64,000 nucleotides of DNA from the NCBI GenBank assembly GCA_009908745.1, contig JAAAOU010000364.1:309-64308 (forward strand), given 5' to 3'. Each line of letters opens with the position of its first letter. The stretch's first letter is position 1. The DNA is from Bacteroidota bacterium (GTDB taxonomy: Bacteria > Bacteroidota > Bacteroidia > Chitinophagales > Saprospiraceae). Position numbers and translations under genes: made by a program. The notes under the pieces are model-generated. The model ran no database searches. It worked only from the letters and a program-made list of their open reading frames with translations, and was not told the origin of the DNA. Shown piece by piece: positions 29,224-39,324 of this stretch.

Positions 29224-30147
29224 GTGGCCGTTTACTCCATAAAAGACTTGGAAAAGCTTTCGGGCATTAAAGCTCACACATTACGCGTGTGGGAGCAGCG
29301 GTACGATATTATCCATCCCCACCGGACCAAGACCAATATACGTTACTACCTGGATGATGACCTGAAGTTTATCCTCAACATCGCCCTGCTCAACAAAAAC
29401 GGCATCAAAATTTCCAAAATTGCCCAAATGAGCCGGGAGGAAATCGCCGAGAAAGTGGCCGCTATTTCCGAAATCAATTTCGAATACGGTACGCAGCTTG
29501 ATGCGCTGACCATCTCCATGATCGAGATGGACGAGTACAAATTCGACCGCATCATCCGGACCAATATACAGCAGCTGGGCTTCGAGCGTACTATGCTTGA
29601 GATTATCTACCCTTTCCTAGACAAGCTCAGTGTGCTATGGCTCACGGGGTCTATCAATCCCGTTCAGGAAAACTTTATGAGCTACCTCATCCGCCAAAAA
29701 ATCGTGGTGGCGATCGACAACGAGCCGTTGGTGAATGGGAAAGACGGTAACCGTTTCTTGATTTACCTTCCGGAAGGCGAGAAACAGGAGTTGTCCATGC
29801 TTTTCATGCACTACCTGCTCAAATCACGCGGTAATCACGTCATCTATGTAGGGCAAGACATCACACTGACTGACCTGAAGGATGCTAGCAACATCTACAA
29901 GCCGGATTATATTTTCACTATGATCACGGAGACTTTCAGCAAGGAGCCGTTGCAGCAGTATATTGACCGTTTGGCGGAAAACCTTCCCGATAGCCAGTTG
30001 CTGCTCTCCGGTTATCAGGTGGTCACGCAGGCAGTCAAGCTCCCCCAAAAGGTTAAAGTGCTAGGCAGCTTGGACCAAACGATGCAGTTTTTGGACGGGC
30101 TCACGCCCAACGTTCCTTCTAAAAAGGAAAAATCAACAGCAAAGTAA
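29224..30147 (+). CDS. MerR-family regulator with B12-binding-like domains (CarH/LitR-like), cobalamin motifs degenerate
   Basis: YSIKDLEKLSGIKAHTLRVWEQRY (MerR HTH); W-x9-EN in place of W-x9-EH; EKQELS in place of ExHxxG. GTG start. Confidence 0.88.
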   Translation: MAVYSIKDLEKLSGIKAHTLRVWEQRYDIIHPHRTKTNIRYYLDDDLKFILNIALLNKNGIKISKIAQMSREEIAEKVAAISEINFEYGTQLDALTISMIEMDEYKFDRIIRTNIQQLGFERTMLEIIYPFLDKLSVLWLTGSINPVQENFMSYLIRQKIVVAIDNEPLVNGKDGNRFLIYLPEGEKQELSMLFMHYLLKSRGNHVIYVGQDITLTDLKDASNIYKPDYIFTMITETFSKEPLQQYIDRLAENLPDSQLLLSGYQVVTQAVKLPQKVKVLGSLDQTMQFLDGLTPNVPSKKEKSTAK

Positions 30148-30210
30148 CATACACTATGCGGACAGCGTTCTTACCGCATTGATCATTCATTCTTTAAACA
30201 AGTTATCCAT

Positions 30211-30918
30211 ATGAAAACCACACTAAACATTCTCGTACTCGCATTATTGGCGGTCGGATTTCTCGCTTGCAACGGCGCGCCCGAAGGTGAGCAGGTAGAA
30301 GCTGGCGAAAAAGCTGAAAAATCGGAAGCCACTGAAGCTGCTGCCCAAGAAGGTATGACCTACACGGTGAATACCGATGCGAGCAAAGTCAACTGGGTAG
30401 GCAGTAAGCTACTGGGCGACCAACACACTGGGTACATCAACCTCAAGAGCGGCACACTCACGGTGAATGACGGTAACATCGTAGACGGTACTTTCACCCT
30501 CGATATGACGTCTATTACGGATACCGACCTCGCCCCGGACGACGGTAAAGCGAAGCTCGAAGGCCACCTCAAGAGCGATGACTTTTTCAACGTCAGCGAA
30601 TACGAGGAGGGCACCTTCGAGATCGTGGAAGTCAAGCAGGCCGGCGACAACCCCGATGCGACCCACCAAATCGTAGGTAATTTGACGCTAAAGGGGATTA
30701 CCAAGAGCGTCACTATTCCCGCTACGATCAATATGATGGAAAACAAGCTCACGGCAAGCACGCCACAGTTCACCATCGACCGCACCGAATGGAAGGTGAT
30801 GTACGGCTCTTCCGCGCTAGGCTTGGCCAAAGACAAAATCATCAACGACCGCGTCGGCTTGTCCATTGAGCTGCAAGCTGCGCCTAAGGAGGAAATGACG
30901 GAAAAGATGGACTCTTAA
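30211..30918 (+). CDS. YceI-family (polyisoprenoid-binding) lipoprotein
   Basis: Lipobox FLAC; SKVNWVGSK...HTG.I, HLKSDDFF, GNLTLKGITK.V, IDRTEW...YGS. Confidence 0.93.
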   Translation: MKTTLNILVLALLAVGFLACNGAPEGEQVEAGEKAEKSEATEAAAQEGMTYTVNTDASKVNWVGSKLLGDQHTGYINLKSGTLTVNDGNIVDGTFTLDMTSITDTDLAPDDGKAKLEGHLKSDDFFNVSEYEEGTFEIVEVKQAGDNPDATHQIVGNLTLKGITKSVTIPATINMMENKLTASTPQFTIDRTEWKVMYGSSALGLAKDKIINDRVGLSIELQAAPKEEMTEKMDS

Positions 30919-31010: not shown

Positions 31011-31255
31011 AGTTGAAAAGTTGGCAGGTTGAAAATTTGAAGTGTTGCCCACCGTGCCCAGTTGAAAAGTTGGCAGGTTGAAAATTTGAAGTGTTGCCCG
31101 CCGTGCTCAGTTGAAAAGTTGACAGGTTGAAAAGTTGAAGGGTTGCCCACCGTGCCCAGTTGAAAAGTTGACAGGTTGAAAAGTTAAAGTGTTGCCCACC
31201 GTGCTCAGTTGAAAAGTTGACAGGTTGAAAAGTTGAAGCGTTGCCCGCCGCGCGA
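31011..31255 (+). repeat. Tandem array, 5 x 49 bp (array 1, part A)
   Basis: Unit agttgaaaagttg(g/a)caggttgaaaa(t/g)ttgaagtgttgccc(a/g)ccgtgc(c/t)c starting at 31011, 31060, 31109, 31158 and 31207. Confidence 0.95.
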
Positions 31256-31520
31256 ACCTTGAAAGACTCCTTCCCTTTGGTCATCCGCCTTCAGGGTAAA
31301 CCTTTCAACCCTTCAACTCTCCGAGCTTACCGTCCCGCCCAACCTTTCAACCTTAGAACCCTCCGAGCCTACCACCGCGCCAACCTTGAAGGACTCCTTC
31401 CCTTTGGTCATCCGCCTTCAGGGTAAACCTTTCAACCCTTCAACCCTCCAAGCTTACCGCCGCGCCAACCTTTCAACCCGCAAGCTGAACACCCCGCCCA
31501 ACCTTTCACCCCGCCCAACC
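31255..31520 (+). repeat. Two copies of the ~125-bp module B (array 1, part B)
   Basis: aaccttgaa(a/g)gactccttccctttggtcatccgccttcagggtaaacctttcaacccttcaac... at ~31255 and ~31382. Rich in aacctttcaacc, which is the near reverse complement of part A's ggttgaaaagtt. Confidence 0.9.
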
Positions 31521-31542
31521 CTCTTATCCAGTACAAGTATCG

Positions 31543-31878
31543 TCAGACGATTTCCAAGAGACCATACTGAGTACTTTCGTGCAGGGCTGTGATTTGTTCA
31601 TGATGGCGGATCAATAGGCTTTTGATATTCTCAGTTGATTGGTTCCCCGTTCTGAGTAGTATAACCTTAGGGGGGAAGCCTTTTTGGACAGAAAAGTGGT
31701 AATAATCTTCATCATTCGTTACGATCATGGCATTGTTGTCTTCCGCCCAATTCCATATCGCAATATCGCTAGCAGGAACCGGTAAGCCACAGCGATCTAC
31801 ATGCTCCACGTGTCCAAATTTTGGCGACAGTAAACTGATCAATCGCCAAGAAAGATTGGCATCCAGCAGTAATTTCAT
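31543..31878 (-). CDS. DUF5615 family PIN-like protein (VapC45-type toxin)
   Basis: MKLLLDANLS, ASDIAIWNWA, IVTNDEDY, PPKVILLRTGN. Confidence 0.9.
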   Translation of the reverse strand: MKLLLDANLSWRLISLLSPKFGHVEHVDRCGLPVPASDIAIWNWAEDNNAMIVTNDEDYYHFSVQKGFPPKVILLRTGNQSTENIKSLLIRHHEQITALHESTQYGLLEIV

Positions 31879-31879
31879 T

Positions 31880-32113
31880 TTACGCGGCGATAATTTGAGT
31901 TATTTGCTCCCGGTAAGCTGCAAAGGCCAGCGCGGCGAAGAGGTGCTCCTGCTTAAGAGTCGGAAAGTCTATGAGTATCTCTTCATAGCTCATACCAGAG
32001 GCAAGCCATTGCAGTATATCTGAAACAGCGATACGGGTACCTTTTATACAGGGCTTGCCGAAACGGATATTGGGGTCAATGCTGATGTATTCTTGATATT
32101 TATTCATTTTCAT
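31880..32113 (-). CDS. DUF433 family antitoxin
   Basis: ISIDPNIRFGKPCIKGTRIAVSDIL..LASGMSYEEIL.DFPTL...AAL.FAA. ATG at 32113 or 32107; stop is 1 nt from the DUF5615 start. Confidence 0.92.
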   Translation of the reverse strand: MKMNKYQEYISIDPNIRFGKPCIKGTRIAVSDILQWLASGMSYEEILIDFPTLKQEHLFAALAFAAYREQITQIIAA

Positions 32114-32261
32114 TTCTATTGCCGTTGTAGAAAAACCCGCTCTCATGTAAGATAGTTCTTTGCCCTGAACTCTTTTGCTTTTAGAGCCTCATTTTTTCAC
32201 CTTTTAAGGTGGCAGCCTTGCCCACCGTGCGCGTGAGCTAACCGTCCCGCCCACTGTGCCC

Positions 32262-32457
32262 GGTTGAAAAGTTGCCAGGTTGAAAAGTTGAAGTGTTGCC
32301 CGCCGTGCCCAGTTGAAAAGTTGCCAGGTTGAAAAGTTGAAGCGTTGCCCACCGTGCCCAGTTGAAAAGTTGCCAGGTTGAAAAGTTGAAGTGTTGCCCA
32401 CCGTGCCAGGTTGAAAAGTTGCCAGGTTGAAAAGTTGAAGTGTTGCCCGCCGCGCCA
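32262..32457 (+). repeat. Tandem array, 4 x 49 bp (array 2, part A)
   Basis: Units start at 32262, 32311, 32360 and 32409; same unit as array 1 but with ttgccagg in place of ttggcagg/ttgacagg. Confidence 0.95.
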
Positions 32458-32675
32458 ACCTTGAAGGACTCCTTCCCTTTGGTCATCCGCCTTCAGGGTA
32501 AACCTTTCAACCCTTCAACTCTCCGAGCTTACCGTCCCGCCCAACCTTTCAACCTTAGAACCCTCCGAGCCTACCACCCCGCCAACCTTTCAACCCTTCA
32601 ACCCGCGAGCTGAACACCGTGCCAACCTTTCAACCCTTCAACCCTCCAAGCTTACCACCCCGCCACCCCTTCAAC
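32457..32675 (+). repeat. Module B plus decaying aacctttcaacccttcaac subunits (array 2, part B)
   Basis: 32457-32580 is nearly identical to 31255-31380. Confidence 0.9.
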
Positions 32676-34507: not shown

Positions 34508-36052
34508 CTACTTCACCAACGGAGCTGCCACCGCCTCCACCGCCCGCCAACTATAAGCGCGGGCACCTTCCCGTACACCTTTCTCTCGGTTGATGTGCTT
34601 GAGGTAAAATGCACCTCTAGGCGGCTGCACGCTTTCCATTTGCGTGCTCCGGTGTAGGCGCTCGTAGGTATCGTAGTCCAGCTCGTGCCGCTTCTCGAGG
34701 GATGCCATAAATTGGAATTGCTCGGTGCTGGCCCGCCAGCCTGGCTCTACCGTAGCGGTGAATACTTTGGATTTGGAGCCGCTGCCGTAGGCAAAAAAAC
34801 CGAAGGTGGAATGGGTGAGGTCGCGCTCCGATTGCAATGCTGCTTCCAGCGTGCTCATCAGCGCCAAGAAGATAGAAGCGGTGTAGAGGTTGCCGACTTT
34901 AGAGGAGGCGCGCTCGCCCTTTTCGATCTTTTCGGCAACGAAACGCCGGTAGCGCTCCGTCTTGGTAACCGCCCGCAGGTATTTTGCTTTGGCCTTTTCG
35001 TAGTCGGCTTCCGCTTCGTACTGTGCTGGCTGGGGCTCCTCTTGTTCTATCAGTGCCGCCGTACGCTCCCAATCACCTCTTTTTTTGCTTTCTTCCATAT
35101 ACAGCTCGGCAAACATACGCCGCGCTTGGTAGGCATAGGGCAAATGAAAAACCATGCGGTGCCAGTCGTCGGTTACCGGCTGTCGGGCATCAAGGCCAGC
35201 TTTCCGGGTGTAGTGCTGTAGCGCCTCGCCGATGCGTTTTTGGTAGCAGGCATTGGAGTAGGGACCGTCAAATACCGGGGTGTCCCGGTGTACGTCCACG
35301 AATGCATCCGGGTGGGAAAGTAGGCCATTGGCAGCTTCGCTATCGTCCATCTTTTGGAGAGTGGCTTGTACCTGCGCTTCGTCTTGTCCGCTTTCGCGCA
35401 ATGCCTCCGCTACAATCTGCTGTTTAGAATATTGCCGGAGCGGTTTGAAAAAATCATGCACGCTGCGGCTAGCGACGCCCCAGCTGTCGTGTATGCTCAG
35501 CAAGCTTGGGTCTTGTTTGACCAGCATGGCCACTGCGCCTGCTCCTTGCGTGTATTCCCCGCCGGAAGCCATATCGTAGCGGGCGATGTCAGAGGCGACC
35601 ACTATGCCGATGCGGTCTTTTCCTCCCCGGACCCAATCCAGCGTATTTTGCAGCGCATCCACCGCGCCGATGCAGGCGAAAGTGAGGTCGACTACATCGC
35701 AATTTAGAAAGGCGTCTTTGCCCTCCTCTTCTGCGTAGTACTGCGTCAGCATATCCAGCACATAAGAGGCCATAGGCTTAGAGCCGTCCACGGTACTTTC
35801 TGTGCCCATGTAGATACGGCCCACCTGCTCAGGTTTGAGGCCGTTGCGTTGCATGAGCTGCAGTACGGCATTGGCAGCCATCGTAGCGACGTCTTCGTGG
35901 GCGTCCGCCACAGCCATTGCTTCCAAACCGAGTCCTTTGTTGAGCTTGGCGTACTCCAAATCCCGGGCTTGCGCCAAGGTTTTGATAGGCAGATAGAGGG
36001 AGGGTAGGTAGACGGCAAGGTCGTCTATTCCCACTTTGGGCGTTGTATGCAT
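34508..36052 (-). CDS. mvaS: Hydroxymethylglutaryl-CoA synthase (mevalonate pathway, Bacteroidota type)
   Basis: KLNKGLG...EDVATMAANA, GTES..DGSKP, FACIGAVDAL (catalytic Cys), GEYTQGAGAVA, FDGPYSN, FHLPY, GNLYTAS, YGSGS. Confidence 0.93.
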   Translation of the reverse strand: MHTTPKVGIDDLAVYLPSLYLPIKTLAQARDLEYAKLNKGLGLEAMAVADAHEDVATMAANAVLQLMQRNGLKPEQVGRIYMGTESTVDGSKPMASYVLDMLTQYYAEEEGKDAFLNCDVVDLTFACIGAVDALQNTLDWVRGGKDRIGIVVASDIARYDMASGGEYTQGAGAVAMLVKQDPSLLSIHDSWGVASRSVHDFFKPLRQYSKQQIVAEALRESGQDEAQVQATLQKMDDSEAANGLLSHPDAFVDVHRDTPVFDGPYSNACYQKRIGEALQHYTRKAGLDARQPVTDDWHRMVFHLPYAYQARRMFAELYMEESKKRGDWERTAALIEQEEPQPAQYEAEADYEKAKAKYLRAVTKTERYRRFVAEKIEKGERASSKVGNLYTASIFLALMSTLEAALQSERDLTHSTFGFFAYGSGSKSKVFTATVEPGWRASTEQFQFMASLEKRHELDYDTYERLHRSTQMESVQPPRGAFYLKHINREKGVREGARAYSWRAVEAVAAPLVK

Positions 36053-36097
36053 AATCCTTTGGTTTTAAAAAATGGCTGGTTATTTGGCAAGGGATTG

Positions 36098-36105
36098 CAA
36101 ATGTA
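36098..36105 (-). promoter_or_regulatory. TAnnTTTG -7 element for HMG-CoA synthase
   Basis: Minus-strand TAcaTTTG 45 bp upstream of the ATG at 36052. Confidence 0.55.
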
Positions 36106-36322
36106 CGCCCTTCAACAAACAGGAGGTACTAATAGTTCTCCAAGGCAGAATTTGTGAATCTTGACTTGCTCTTTTTCCGGCTAGCTGCCTCAAAAAGCCT
36201 CGACGTCCGTACGGATGCCTACGTTTTTTGACTTGCCAGCCAAAAAAATAGCGGCGTCAATTTTTCACATATCCTATCGTGGAAAACTATAGGTTTAAAA
36301 AAACGGCGGTTACTAAGGCCTG

Positions 36323-36565
36323 CTACTCGTAGCGCTTGAAGATTTTGTCAATCTCATGGGCGAGCTCCCGGTCTTTGTCGGTCACCACATCGCCAGCGTC
36401 GTGGGTGCTGAGGGCAAAGTCCACGGTGTTGTATACGTTGTGCCAGTCGGGGTGGTGCTGCAGTTTTTCTGCCTTGAAGGCCACTTCAGTCATAAAGCTG
36501 AAGGCCTGGGTAAAGTCTTCGAACTTGAAGGTTGCTTTGAGTTTATTGTCTGACTCTTTCCACAT
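36323..36565 (-). CDS. phhB: Pterin-4-alpha-carbinolamine dehydratase
   Basis: FKFEDFTQAFSFMTEVA..AEKLQHHPDW.NVYNTV...LSTHD.G..VT.KD..LA. Confidence 0.95.
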   Translation of the reverse strand: MWKESDNKLKATFKFEDFTQAFSFMTEVAFKAEKLQHHPDWHNVYNTVDFALSTHDAGDVVTDKDRELAHEIDKIFKRYE

Positions 36566-36667
36566 AATCGTTCTTTTAAGGTAATTGTGTAAATTAGGCT
36601 TTCCTTTTCAAGCCCGCAGCCGGGAAAATGTTCACCTGCTACGCCATCATTTCAATAACGAGCACCT

Positions 36668-37576
36668 ATGCGATTAGTACAACACAAGAGAGAAGCCTAC
36701 TGGTTTTACCGCTTTTTGTCTATTTTTTACGACAAGTTGGTCAACCCACTGTTCTGGACCGCCCCGATGCGGGATAAAGCCCTAAAGTTGGCCCAGCTGG
36801 ACGAAGCAGGCATCACGGTGATAGACGTGGGCTCGGGTACTGGCTTTACCACGGAGGGGATCGTACGCTACGTTTCGCCGCAGCAGGTGACTTGCGTGGA
36901 CCAAAGCCCGCACCAAATGGAGCAAGCGAAAGCCAAGCCGGTGCTGCAGGGGTGTACTTTCCAACAGGGCGATGCAGAAAATATCCCTTTTCCCAGCCAG
37001 CAATTCGACCGGTATGTGTCAGCGGGCAGTATTGAATATTGGCCCGACCCCGCCAAGGGCATACGGGAAGCCTTCCGGGTGGTCAAGCCGGGGGGGATTG
37101 CCTTGATGATTGGCCCGCTTGAGCCAGCCAACCCTATCGGCCGTTTTATGGCAGAGTTGTGGATGTTGTTCCCGGAAGAAGAAGCCTACTGGCAGTGGTT
37201 CCGGGAGGCCGGCTTCGAAGAGCTGGAGGTGTGCTACGTCAAGCCGCAGTGGGTGGAAGGCAAAGGGAAGTACGGCATTGCATTAGCAGGCCGCCGCCCG
37301 CTGCACGCGGCAGACCCGCCCGAGGCAGCATCCTCAGCGGAAGAGCAAGAACGCATGGGGCTAGGGCGGCAGATTTTGCTTATCTTCCGGGTCATCATTG
37401 GGTCATTGGCCGGTTTTATTTTTATTCCGGCAGCTCTGGTCGGCCATCTGCGCCTGGCTTTCAAAAAGCGGGACCCTATTCCCGAAGCACAACGGGAGCG
37501 GCTCAACCGGCAGCAGATTACGGCGCTGGTCGTGCTTGCCGCCATTATTGTACTGCTGTTATTCATCATCTTTTAA
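36668..37576 (+). CDS. Plant-type 2-methyl-6-phytyl/solanesyl-1,4-benzoquinol methyltransferase (VTE3/APG1-like) with C-terminal membrane anchor
   Basis: QHKREAYWFYRFLSIFYD, DVGSGTGFT, DQSPHQ, GDAENIPFP, DRYVSAGSIEYWPDP.KGIREAFRV, WMLFPEEE.Y..WF and FRVIIGSLAG track Arabidopsis VTE3 motif by motif (from memory). Confidence 0.88.
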   Translation: MRLVQHKREAYWFYRFLSIFYDKLVNPLFWTAPMRDKALKLAQLDEAGITVIDVGSGTGFTTEGIVRYVSPQQVTCVDQSPHQMEQAKAKPVLQGCTFQQGDAENIPFPSQQFDRYVSAGSIEYWPDPAKGIREAFRVVKPGGIALMIGPLEPANPIGRFMAELWMLFPEEEAYWQWFREAGFEELEVCYVKPQWVEGKGKYGIALAGRRPLHAADPPEAASSAEEQERMGLGRQILLIFRVIIGSLAGFIFIPAALVGHLRLAFKKRDPIPEAQRERLNRQQITALVVLAAIIVLLLFIIF

Positions 37577-37588
37577 ACGATTTGGCTT

Positions 37589-38425
37589 ATGGACGCGCTC
37601 AACCAACAGATCAAAAAATTCTATGATGCTTCCACGCCCATCTGGCTGGATACCTGGGGGGAGCATATGCACCACGGGTACTACGGCGACCGCTTGGACA
37701 AAGACCACCAACAGGCGCAGCTCGATTTGGTAGAAGAGCTGCTGCAGTGGGGCGGGGTAGAACAGGCACAGTCGGTGTTGGATGCCGGCTGTGGTGTAGG
37801 GGGCAGTGCCCGGCTGCTGGCTCAAAAACTCGGTGCCAATCGTGTGTTTGGGTGTACCCTAAGCAGCGTACAGGCGGAACGCGCCGCCCGGTACAACGAA
37901 CTGGCGGGGCTGAGGGAGCGCGTCACTATACAAGCCCGCGACATGATGACCCTAGGCAAAGAAGACGGCCCTTTCGACCTGATCTGGTCGCTGGAAAGCG
38001 CCGAGCACATCGCTGATAAAGCGGCTTTGCTAACGATGTTCTACGAATTGCTGGAGCCTGGCGGCCGCTTGCTGCTGGCTACCTGGTGCCACCGCGAAAC
38101 CCCGCCGCCACTGGCGTATGCGGATCATCGGGTACTGGAAAAACTGCAGCGGCTCTACCACCTGCCGCCGTTCGTCCCCCTGTCGCAACTGCGGCAGCAC
38201 GCTTTGCAAGCCGGCTTTCAGGCGGTAAAAACCGAGGACTGGAGCGAGGCTGTGGCCCCCTTCTGGAAAGCCGTCATTCAATCTGCCCTGCGCCTACAAA
38301 GCATCAAAGGCTTGATGCAAGCCGGCTGGCCGACTATCAAAGGCGCCTGGGCGATGCGGCAGATGACGAAAGGGTACAAGCGGGGGCTCATTAAATTTGG
38401 AGTGCTGCAAGCCATGAAAGTATGA
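37589..38425 (+). CDS. Gamma-tocopherol methyltransferase-like protein (VTE4/Slr0089)
   Basis: FYD.S..W...WGEHMHHGYY, AQLDLVEELL, LDAGCGVGGS, FDLIWSLESAEH, LATWCHR, DWSEAVAPFW..VI.SA, KGYKRGLIKFG. Confidence 0.88.
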   Translation: MDALNQQIKKFYDASTPIWLDTWGEHMHHGYYGDRLDKDHQQAQLDLVEELLQWGGVEQAQSVLDAGCGVGGSARLLAQKLGANRVFGCTLSSVQAERAARYNELAGLRERVTIQARDMMTLGKEDGPFDLIWSLESAEHIADKAALLTMFYELLEPGGRLLLATWCHRETPPPLAYADHRVLEKLQRLYHLPPFVPLSQLRQHALQAGFQAVKTEDWSEAVAPFWKAVIQSALRLQSIKGLMQAGWPTIKGAWAMRQMTKGYKRGLIKFGVLQAMKV

Positions 38426-39324
38426 AGTCATTTTTTATCTCGTTCGCCCGTTTTTCCCGCCCACATACTATTGTGGGGACCACTTTGAGCTTGCTGGCGC
38501 TGTATTTGCTGGCGCTTTCTTACGCAGAAGGCACTTCATGGCATACCGGCTTGTTTGTGGGCTCTTTGCTAAGCTGCCTGGGGGCCAATATCTACATCGT
38601 GGGGCTGAATCAGCTCACAGACATTGACATAGACCGCATCAACAAGCCTTACCTGCCGCTGGCGTCCGGGGATTTTTCCATACGCACCGGCAAGATTATT
38701 ATCGGCGTAGGCTTGGCAATTTCGCTCGTGCTGGCGGTTTGGCTGGGGCGTTACCTGTTGCTAACCGTTGTGCTCAGCCTGTTGCTGGGTACGGCCTATT
38801 CCCTGCCCCCATTCCGGCTCAAGCGCTTCTACTTTTGGGCGGCGTTCTGCATTATCGCCGTGCGGGGCCTGATTGTCAACTTGCTATTGTTCCTGCATTT
38901 TCACTGGCAGATCAACGGCGGTACCCGGATCACGCCGACCGTAGCCTGGCTGACCTTTTCCATTTTCGTCTTTGGCTTGATCATCGCCTGGTTCAAGGAC
39001 ATGCCGGATACGGAAGGTGATCAGGCCTTTGCGATAGAGACCCTTTCCATAAAGTTAGGCGTGCGGCGGGTGTTTCTGATTGGCAATGGGCTGCTCAGCT
39101 TCTTGTTTTTGCTGTTAGCCCTGCTGCCGCTTGCGGTAGAGATGCAGGCACACCCGTGGGTATTCAGCTTGGGCCATTTGGGGATGCTGGGGTTCTTGTG
39201 GTGGTCTATTGGCCGGGTAGACTTAGGGCAACAAGCTTCTATTGCGCGGTATTACCAGTCGATTTGGCTGCTTTTCTTTGTGGAATACGGCTTGTTTGCG
39301 CTGGCGGGCTTGCTACACAGCTAA
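38422..39324 (+). CDS. Homogentisate phytyltransferase-like UbiA-family prenyltransferase (VTE2/Slr1736)
   Basis: FSRPHTIVGT, NIYIVGLNQLTDIDIDRINKPYLPLASG, AYSLPPFRLKR, VRGLIVN, FKDMPDTEGD...IETL; about 9 transmembrane helices; ATGA overlap with the upstream gene. Confidence 0.92.
   Translation: MKSFFISFARFSRPHTIVGTTLSLLALYLLALSYAEGTSWHTGLFVGSLLSCLGANIYIVGLNQLTDIDIDRINKPYLPLASGDFSIRTGKIIIGVGLAISLVLAVWLGRYLLLTVVLSLLLGTAYSLPPFRLKRFYFWAAFCIIAVRGLIVNLLLFLHFHWQINGGTRITPTVAWLTFSIFVFGLIIAWFKDMPDTEGDQAFAIETLSIKLGVRRVFLIGNGLLSFLFLLLALLPLAVEMQAHPWVFSLGHLGMLGFLWWSIGRVDLGQQASIARYYQSIWLLFFVEYGLFALAGLLHS

Follow-up and report, generated by a model that had tools for sequence, protein, structure and literature searches.

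A candidate tocochromanol (vitamin-E-type) gene cluster in a non-phototrophic bacterium of the Saprospiraceae

Layout of the gene cluster

This report concerns three adjacent genes, called here MT1, MT2 and HPT, in a 64,000-nucleotide stretch of Bacteroidota DNA (the window: positions 309 to 64,308 of contig JAAAOU010000364.1, assembly GCA_009908745.1) from a marine, Phaeodactylibacter-like member of the Saprospiraceae. Judged by their sequences, these genes would account for the first committed step and both ring methylations in the tocochromanol, or vitamin-E-type, pathway. They are listed with related features in Table 1. A preliminary description of the window had reported, at 36668-39324, three co-oriented genes with one gap of 12 bp and one overlap of ATGA, and the list of open reading frames (ORFs) and direct reading of the letters agree with it: MT1 ends in the TAA at 37574-37576, a spacer of 12 bases leads to the ATG of MT2 at 37589, and MT2 and HPT overlap in the ATGA at 38422-38425. 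That the genes resemble their flanks in composition was also correct, the GC content of the cluster being 0.535-0.544 and similar to that of the flanks. The cluster lies in the middle of the contig (64.6 kb) among typical Bacteroidota neighbours, and the stretch phhB-MT1-MT2-HPT is present on contigs of three separate studies (marine sediment and other metagenomes). The recovery of the same stretch in three studies shows that the contig is not chimeric at the cluster; a chimeric contig was among the outcomes that the preliminary description had named as refuting its claim.

Table 1. Predicted features of the cluster, its neighbours and related genes elsewhere in the genome (positions are those of the window unless a contig is named)
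Feature	Position	Strand	Length and state	Remarks
MT1, plant-type (VTE3-like) 2-methyl-6-phytyl-benzoquinol/2-methyl-6-solanesyl-benzoquinol (MPBQ/MSBQ) C-methyltransferase	36668..37576	+	302 aa, intact	C-terminal hydrophobic anchor
MT2, gamma-tocopherol methyltransferase (gamma-TMT; VTE4/slr0089) type	37589..38425	+	278 aa, intact	
HPT, homogentisate prenyl(phytyl/geranylgeranyl)transferase	38422..39324	+	300 aa, intact	UbiA superfamily
Tocopherol-cyclase-family gene	G000:C378:5850-6830 (L001 1117-2100)		327 aa	Pfam PF14249
HPPD	contig C167			TIGR01263, 470.5 bits against a cut-off of 277
phhB, pterin-4a-carbinolamine dehydratase	36323..36565	-		divergent neighbour; Pfam PF01329, 91 bits
HMG-CoA synthase (mevalonate route to prenyl diphosphates)	34508..36052	-		Pfam PF01154 and PF08540 matches
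Divergent phhB/MT1 spacer	36566..36667	.	102 bp	site of the geranylgeranyl reductase (GGR) gene in the closest syntenic relatives; gene absent in this genome

Identity of HPT, MT1 and MT2

For MT1 and MT2 the matches in Pfam and NCBIfam were all to generic models, so that verified reference proteins were needed. Synechocystis slr1736, slr0089 and sll0418 and Arabidopsis VTE4, HPT1 and HST were confirmed by exact look-up, and At3g63410 (VTE3) was recovered from the protein database at 100% identity, from which the plant tocopherol cyclases were retrieved too; the sequence of Synechocystis slr1737 was not confirmed and was therefore excluded. A search of solved structures returned generic methyltransferases only, and nothing for the cyclase that is described below.

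HPT scored 355.6 bits on NF009525, the NCBIfam equivalog model for homogentisate phytyltransferase (cut-off 226), and its next-best family was ChlG with 67 bits. By BLASTP it is 50% identical to slr1736 (237 bits), 41% identical to AtHPT1 (183 bits) and likewise 41% identical to the homogentisate solanesyltransferase AtHST (155 bits). By these bit scores HPT appears nearer to the characterised HPTs than to homogentisate solanesyltransferase, the tree not being decisive. Both Asp-rich motifs of the UbiA superfamily, NQxxDxxxD and KDxxDxxGD, are present as NQLTDIDIDRINKP and KDMPDTEGD and are invariant across a 12-sequence HPT alignment. In the HPT tree the sequences of the Fibrobacteres-Chlorobi-Bacteroidetes (FCB) group form a clade with a support of 99, inside which Calditrichota and Bacteroidota are each monophyletic, and this phylum-wise monophyly argues against recent transfer. 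The FCB clade stands on a long branch (1.14) apart from slr1736 and AtHPT1. Three further HPT sequences deserve mention in their own right. The HPT at 942-1814 of locus L053, on a contig of a metagenome-assembled genome (MAG) labelled Deltaproteobacteria, is near-identical to that of the Calditrichaceae locus L047 (branch lengths 0.085/0.056), and the L053 contig is probably mis-binned; the HPT of genome G446 is in two pieces (G446:C898:600-1513), by frameshift or assembly error; and genome G128, of another Bacteroidota family, has the top HPT score, 386 bits, with two TAA codons reported within the match (G128:C1:1663998-1664897).

MT1 is 48% identical to Arabidopsis VTE3 over 259 aa (236 bits, E 5e-81, BLASTP) in an alignment that takes in the N-terminal QHK(R/K)EAYWFYRFLSI block and the C-terminal membrane segment, and it is 44.5-48% identical to 11 land-plant VTE3s. 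Its match to Synechocystis Sll0418 amounts to just 50 bits and covers the S-adenosylmethionine (SAM) domain only. MT1 and land-plant VTE3 form one clade, with a support of 92/89 in the careful tree and a Shimodaira-Hasegawa-like approximate likelihood ratio (SH-aLRT) support of 95 in the quick tree, and the genome's own UbiE-like paralogues lie far from MT1 in the trees. Membership in UbiE/MenG was rejected (TIGR01934, 61.6 bits against a cut-off of 158), as was membership in MpqE (NF052510, 30 bits against a cut-off of 335).

MT2 aligns end to end with slr0089 at 44% identity (225 bits), with Arabidopsis VTE4 at 39% and with Vigna gamma-TMT at 40%, as against 32% and 135 bits with Sll0418. 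The relatives used for its trees came from a search of 1.84 billion representatives; MT2 falls outside the clade of Sll0418-type MPBQ methyltransferases (18 rows, SH-aLRT 99), and its nearest named relatives are labelled tocopherol O-methyltransferase by JGI. Membership of these proteins in the sterol/cyclopropane methyltransferases and in ChlG was rejected with scores far under the cut-offs. The assignment of the three genes to VTE3, VTE4 and VTE2/HPT in the preliminary description thus held against verified references, and none of the three proteins clusters with UbiE/MenG, MenA/UbiA or sterol methyltransferases, the groupings that it had named as the competing ones.

Synteny and co-occurrence in relatives

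Phaeodactylibacter, Saprospiraceae and Lewinellaceae have many HPT homologues. Eighty loci from 140 relatives, scanned with clade-specific peptide patterns, were compared; only relatives of the FCB group were returned, and no cyanobacteria. Among them are cultured strains (Flavilitoribacter nigricans DSM 23189, Phaeodactylibacter xiamenensis KD52 and several of Neolewinella and Lewinella) and Calditrichota MAGs, and the synteny seen in the window is shared by cultured isolates (L023, L038) and by complete chromosomes. With the order MT1-MT2-HPT shared by about 55 of the 80 loci and by two phyla, the arrangement is far beyond chance. The cyclase gene is adjacent to the cluster and co-oriented with it in four Calditrichota loci (L047, L055, L064, L069) and two Saprospiraceae loci (L079, L083), the order in L083 being CYC-GGR-MT1-MT2-HPT; in the Saprospiraceae locus L033 cyclase and cluster are no more than about 4 kb apart but are on opposite strands. 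In L029 the distance from HPPD to the cluster is 3.5 kb. Two other arrangements were seen: in eight Lewinella/Neolewinella loci (L065, L070, L072, L073, L076, L078, L080, L081) HPT is on its own, flanked by a RidA gene and oligopeptidase B, and in genome G351 the module is split, MT2-MT1 and GGR being about 440 kb from HPT.

HPT was present in 4 of 401 Bacteroidota genomes sampled evenly. Co-occurrence was examined by Fisher test in 201 genomes of the window's family, 32 of them HPT-positive and 169 HPT-negative. MT1 was found in 29 of the HPT-positive and in none of the HPT-negative genomes (p 6e-32), MT2 in 28 and 1 (p 7e-29), GGR in 28 and 0 (p 3e-30), and the cyclase in 30 and 57 (p 9e-11; 87 of the 201 overall). 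This pattern shows that HPT, MT1, MT2 and GGR behave as one module that is gained or lost together.

Cyclase, HPPD and the non-phototrophic host

Elsewhere in the genome, where the preliminary description had suggested looking for VTE1 and HPPD, a tocopherol-cyclase-family gene and an HPPD gene were both found (Table 1). The cyclase scored 79 bits on PF14249 against a cut-off of 26.6, over its C-terminal half only. Profile-profile comparison (hhalign) of 14 bacterial cyclase orthologues with 14 plant VTE1s gave a probability of 99.2% and an E of 1.4e-19 over nearly the full length, bacterial columns 18-319 being aligned with plant VTE1 86-451. The region of VTE1 with YxEKNWG and FPxxWxWxQxN has been proposed as catalytic (PMC4963081). 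The cyclase segment YMEKDWGRSFPSSWIWMQSN aligns with this plant segment, YxEK(N/D)WG / FPxxWxWxQxN, and the residues of the proposed region are invariant in the 14 bacterial orthologues, with one position being N in plants and D here. In 10 HPT-negative genomes the surroundings of the cyclase held no conserved functional partner; a DUF1232 gene and an Xaa-Pro aminopeptidase gene, near the cyclase in 4 of 11 loci, were its sole conserved neighbours.

On C167 the HPPD gene is adjoined by a homogentisate-dioxygenase-like (HgmA-like) gene, and on the strength of this pair homogentisate would be a normal metabolite of the organism. No chlorophyll or bacteriochlorophyll synthase (ChlG/BchG) scored above the cut-off in the genome, where the best match was HPT itself with 53 bits, and no type-II reaction-centre protein (Photo_RC) was found there. 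The host is thus non-photosynthetic, as had been supposed.

Loss of geranylgeranyl reductase

In relatives GGR is a protein of 391 aa that scores 231 bits on TIGR02032 (cut-off 158.8), and its gene is directly upstream of MT1 in 45 of the 80 loci. The nearest syntenic relatives, L004 and L013, have the order HMGS-phhB-GGR-MT1-MT2-HPT, and G539, which belongs to the same genus as the window's genome, has GGR adjacent to the cluster. In the window and in L035, phhB is followed by MT1 without GGR, with spacers of 102 and 92 bp, and the junction without GGR is spanned by contigs from three independent studies. A search by tblastn, by a custom hidden Markov model with hmmsearch and across genomes found no GGR anywhere in this genome. 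This genome has lost GGR. In its absence, the side chain is predicted to be geranylgeranyl, which would give a tocotrienol-type product, or to come from salvaged phytol, and these are the most likely sources here. Phytol may be salvaged, since a DUF92/VTE6-family (phytyl-phosphate-kinase-like) gene is present. This gene is split over two contig ends (G000:C127:22-408, L095; G000:C429:9-248, L096). Close to its fragment on C127 is a desaturase-like ORF whose third histidine box has the form QxxHH that is typical of front-end desaturases. A motif scan of the genome found no ketosynthase (KS) domains of polyunsaturated fatty acid (PUFA) synthases.

Neighbouring genes and the assembly

Next to the cluster, phhB is kept in about 10 Phaeodactylibacter/Lewinellaceae loci and may be a link to precursor supply, from Phe through Tyr and hydroxyphenylpyruvate (HPP) to homogentisate. 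The HMG-CoA synthase gene is syntenic with the cluster only in L004, L013 and L035, and its link to the operon is therefore weak. The spacer between HMG-CoA synthase and phhB (36068-36335) contains a high-copy repeat, with an assembler word depth of 237-1216 as against about 11 in the flanks, and 159 bp of it (36131-36289) are skipped in contigs of runs X1 and X5, which marks a small polymorphic repeat element. Further upstream, at 31011-32675 and 29224-30918, there are a toxin-antitoxin pair flanked by repeats and, beside a YceI gene, a CarH/LitR-like regulator; no link of these genes to the operon was found. The genome assembly is of the metagenome type and comprises 5.39 Mb.

Proposed pathway and alternative explanations

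We consider it fairly probable that these genes belong to a tocochromanol pathway in this non-phototrophic bacterium, with substrates, a cyclisation and a product that we infer. Genes of all five enzyme families that the pathway calls for are present in the genome. HPPD would make homogentisate, which HPT would prenylate and decarboxylate to 2-methyl-6-prenyl-benzoquinol; MT1, being of the VTE3 type, would add the second ring methyl, the VTE1-family cyclase would close the chromanol ring, and MT2, of the gamma-TMT type, would add the last methyl to give the alpha form. The GGR in the operons of most relatives would supply the saturated phytyl chain. The product likely protects membrane lipids against peroxidation. 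As for the pathway drawn in the preliminary description, its family identities stand and HPPD and the cyclase have been added to them, but it has to be corrected or supplemented in two respects, since GGR is lost here and the cyclase is not exclusive to HPT-positive genomes. Its view that the genes have resided for a long time in this lineage agrees with the conserved synteny and with the phylum-level monophyly of the HPT clade.

Several findings weigh against this interpretation. In all these organisms the pathway is so far predicted from genes alone. The cyclase is just 22-26% identical to plant VTE1 (22% by BLASTP) and in this genome is unlinked to the cluster, on contig C378 with uninformative neighbours; since it occurs in 57 HPT-negative genomes, it must have another or an additional role. 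MT2 falls in a grade that holds slr0089 and the plant gamma-TMTs, where the backbone collapses to a polytomy (support under 90). The prenyl donor and the aromatic acceptor of a UbiA enzyme cannot be read from its sequence, and AtHST is as close to HPT in percent identity as AtHPT1 is. To these must be added the missing GGR and the fragmentation of the genome, which is in 541 contigs and 95% complete.

If the cyclase-family gene is unrelated to the cluster, the pathway would end before cyclisation, at a methylated prenyl-benzoquinol or -quinone that resembles plastoquinone or tocopherolquinone and acts as a redox lipid or antioxidant. The separate contig and uninformative neighbours of the cyclase and its presence in 57 of the 169 HPT-negative genomes of the family speak for this, as does the 41% identity of HPT to AtHST, because in plants HST and VTE3 make plastoquinol. 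We nevertheless regard this explanation as unlikely. Of the 32 HPT-positive genomes 30 have the cyclase, and its gene adjoins the cluster in the same orientation in six loci of two phyla, with a seventh locus in which it is close by on the other strand. MT2 belongs to the gamma-TMT type, and the known substrates of gamma-TMT are chromanols; both HPT references give HPT a higher score than HST does; and the dedicated GGR of the relatives, which points to a saturated C20 chain, fits tocopherol and not a long-chain respiratory quinone. It is harder still to credit that the aromatic acceptor of the prenyltransferase is a compound other than homogentisate, so that the product would be a different methylated meroterpenoid and the vitamin E names a mere carry-over of annotation. 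The specificity of UbiA-family enzymes is not predictable from sequence and the long branch of the FCB clade of HPT gives this idea some room. It is opposed by the fact that four different enzymes each match best the verified members of one pathway, by the equivalog score of HPT well over the cut-off, and by HPPD, which is in the genome here and close to the cluster in L029.

An assembly or binning artefact might be suspected in a metagenome-type assembly of so many contigs, and another way to explain the genes would be that they were acquired very recently, and in non-functional form, from a cyanobacterium or an alga. Both are effectively refuted by the mid-contig position, the Bacteroidota neighbours, the matching GC and the intact ORFs, by the synteny in cultured isolates and complete chromosomes, by the contigs of three studies and by the monophyly of the HPT clade within each phylum.

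Comparison with known systems

The cyanobacterial pathway (Synechocystis slr0090 HPPD, slr1736 HPT, sll0418 MPBQ methyltransferase, slr1737 cyclase and slr0089 gamma-TMT) has the same order of steps as the one proposed here. HPT (50%) and MT2 (44%) have their closest verified matches in Synechocystis, and in both cases the proteins are prokaryotic and without transit peptides. However, the MPBQ methyltransferase here is of the plant VTE3 type and not of the Sll0418 type, the host has no chlorophyll or reaction-centre genes, and, whereas the tocopherol genes of Synechocystis are dispersed, those of this genome are clustered as an operon to which relatives add a dedicated GGR. With the plant plastid pathway (VTE2/HPT1 or HGGT, VTE3, VTE1 and VTE4) the same four enzyme families are shared, and MT1 matches VTE3 across the whole mature protein. 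The tocotrienol branch of plants, in which HGGT uses geranylgeranyl diphosphate (GGPP), is a natural analogue for a genome without GGR. Unlike in plants, the genes form a bacterial operon without plastid targeting, HPT is only 41% identical to AtHPT1, and the bacterial cyclase, of about 330 aa, lacks a stretch of about 75 residues that is present in VTE1. The plant plastoquinone-9 branch (HST and VTE3) likewise proceeds by homogentisate prenylation and then VTE3-type methylation; it differs in that AtHST gives HPT a lower score than each of the two HPT references and in that gamma-TMT, the cyclase and GGR are not part of plastoquinone synthesis.

A near counterpart of the system of the window is the cyclase-MT1-MT2-HPT operon of the four Calditrichota loci, which consists of the same four gene families, orthologous at 41-62% identity, and shares the plant-type VTE3; the cyclase is inside the operon there, while in the window's genome it is on another contig and GGR is missing. 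A benzoquinone-type prenyl lipid of a non-phototroph is made by the methyl-plastoquinone pathway of Nitrospirota, with MpqE (10.1101/2024.07.27.605408), from which the present system differs because MT1 is not a member of MpqE (30 bits against 335). By these sequence comparisons the predicted pathway is a mosaic, in which HPT and the gamma-TMT are nearest to cyanobacterial enzymes and the MPBQ methyltransferase is of the plant type.

MT1 and the origin of plant VTE3

To our knowledge, VTE3 of the plant and algal type is absent from cyanobacteria and its origin is unexplained. Within the clade of MT1 and VTE3, land-plant VTE3 groups with the MT1 of Calditrichota with a support of 98/92, in a tree that is rooted on saturated outgroups and is without algae or other bacterial phyla. 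Plant VTE3 may thus be related by gene transfer to the bacterial MT1 genes; the direction of any transfer is not set by the tree, and we take the grouping tentatively, as a lead on the origin of VTE3. A wider proposal would be that an old operon enables non-phototrophic members of the FCB group (Saprospiraceae and Calditrichota) to make true alpha-tocopherol or alpha-tocotrienol, and that plant and algal VTE3 shares a non-cyanobacterial bacterial origin with MT1. We put this forward as a speculative possibility, toward which we are inclined to be doubtful.

Significance

According to textbooks, vitamin E is made by oxygenic phototrophs only (plants, algae and cyanobacteria), and its function is usually discussed around photosynthesis. 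Automated annotation by NCBI and JGI already names the genes, for example as homogentisate phytyltransferase. The preliminary description knew of no demonstration of the pathway in Bacteroidota, and our literature search likewise found no description of tocopherol genes or of the pathway in this phylum, although subscription-only papers may hold one; the cyclase-like proteins mentioned in PMC4963081 are from other heterotrophs only. Since cultured carriers exist, the claim can be tested by ordinary lipid extraction, and the contrast between relatives with GGR and this genome without it predicts producers of tocopherol and of tocotrienol, respectively. The heterotrophic carriers come from marine sediment, microbial mats and algal cultures. 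If the interpretation is true, they would be bacterial sources of vitamin E in marine food webs, their compact operons would be of use for engineering, and plant-type VTE3 would have a prokaryotic context. Tocochromanols would then be general membrane antioxidants that are independent of photosynthesis.

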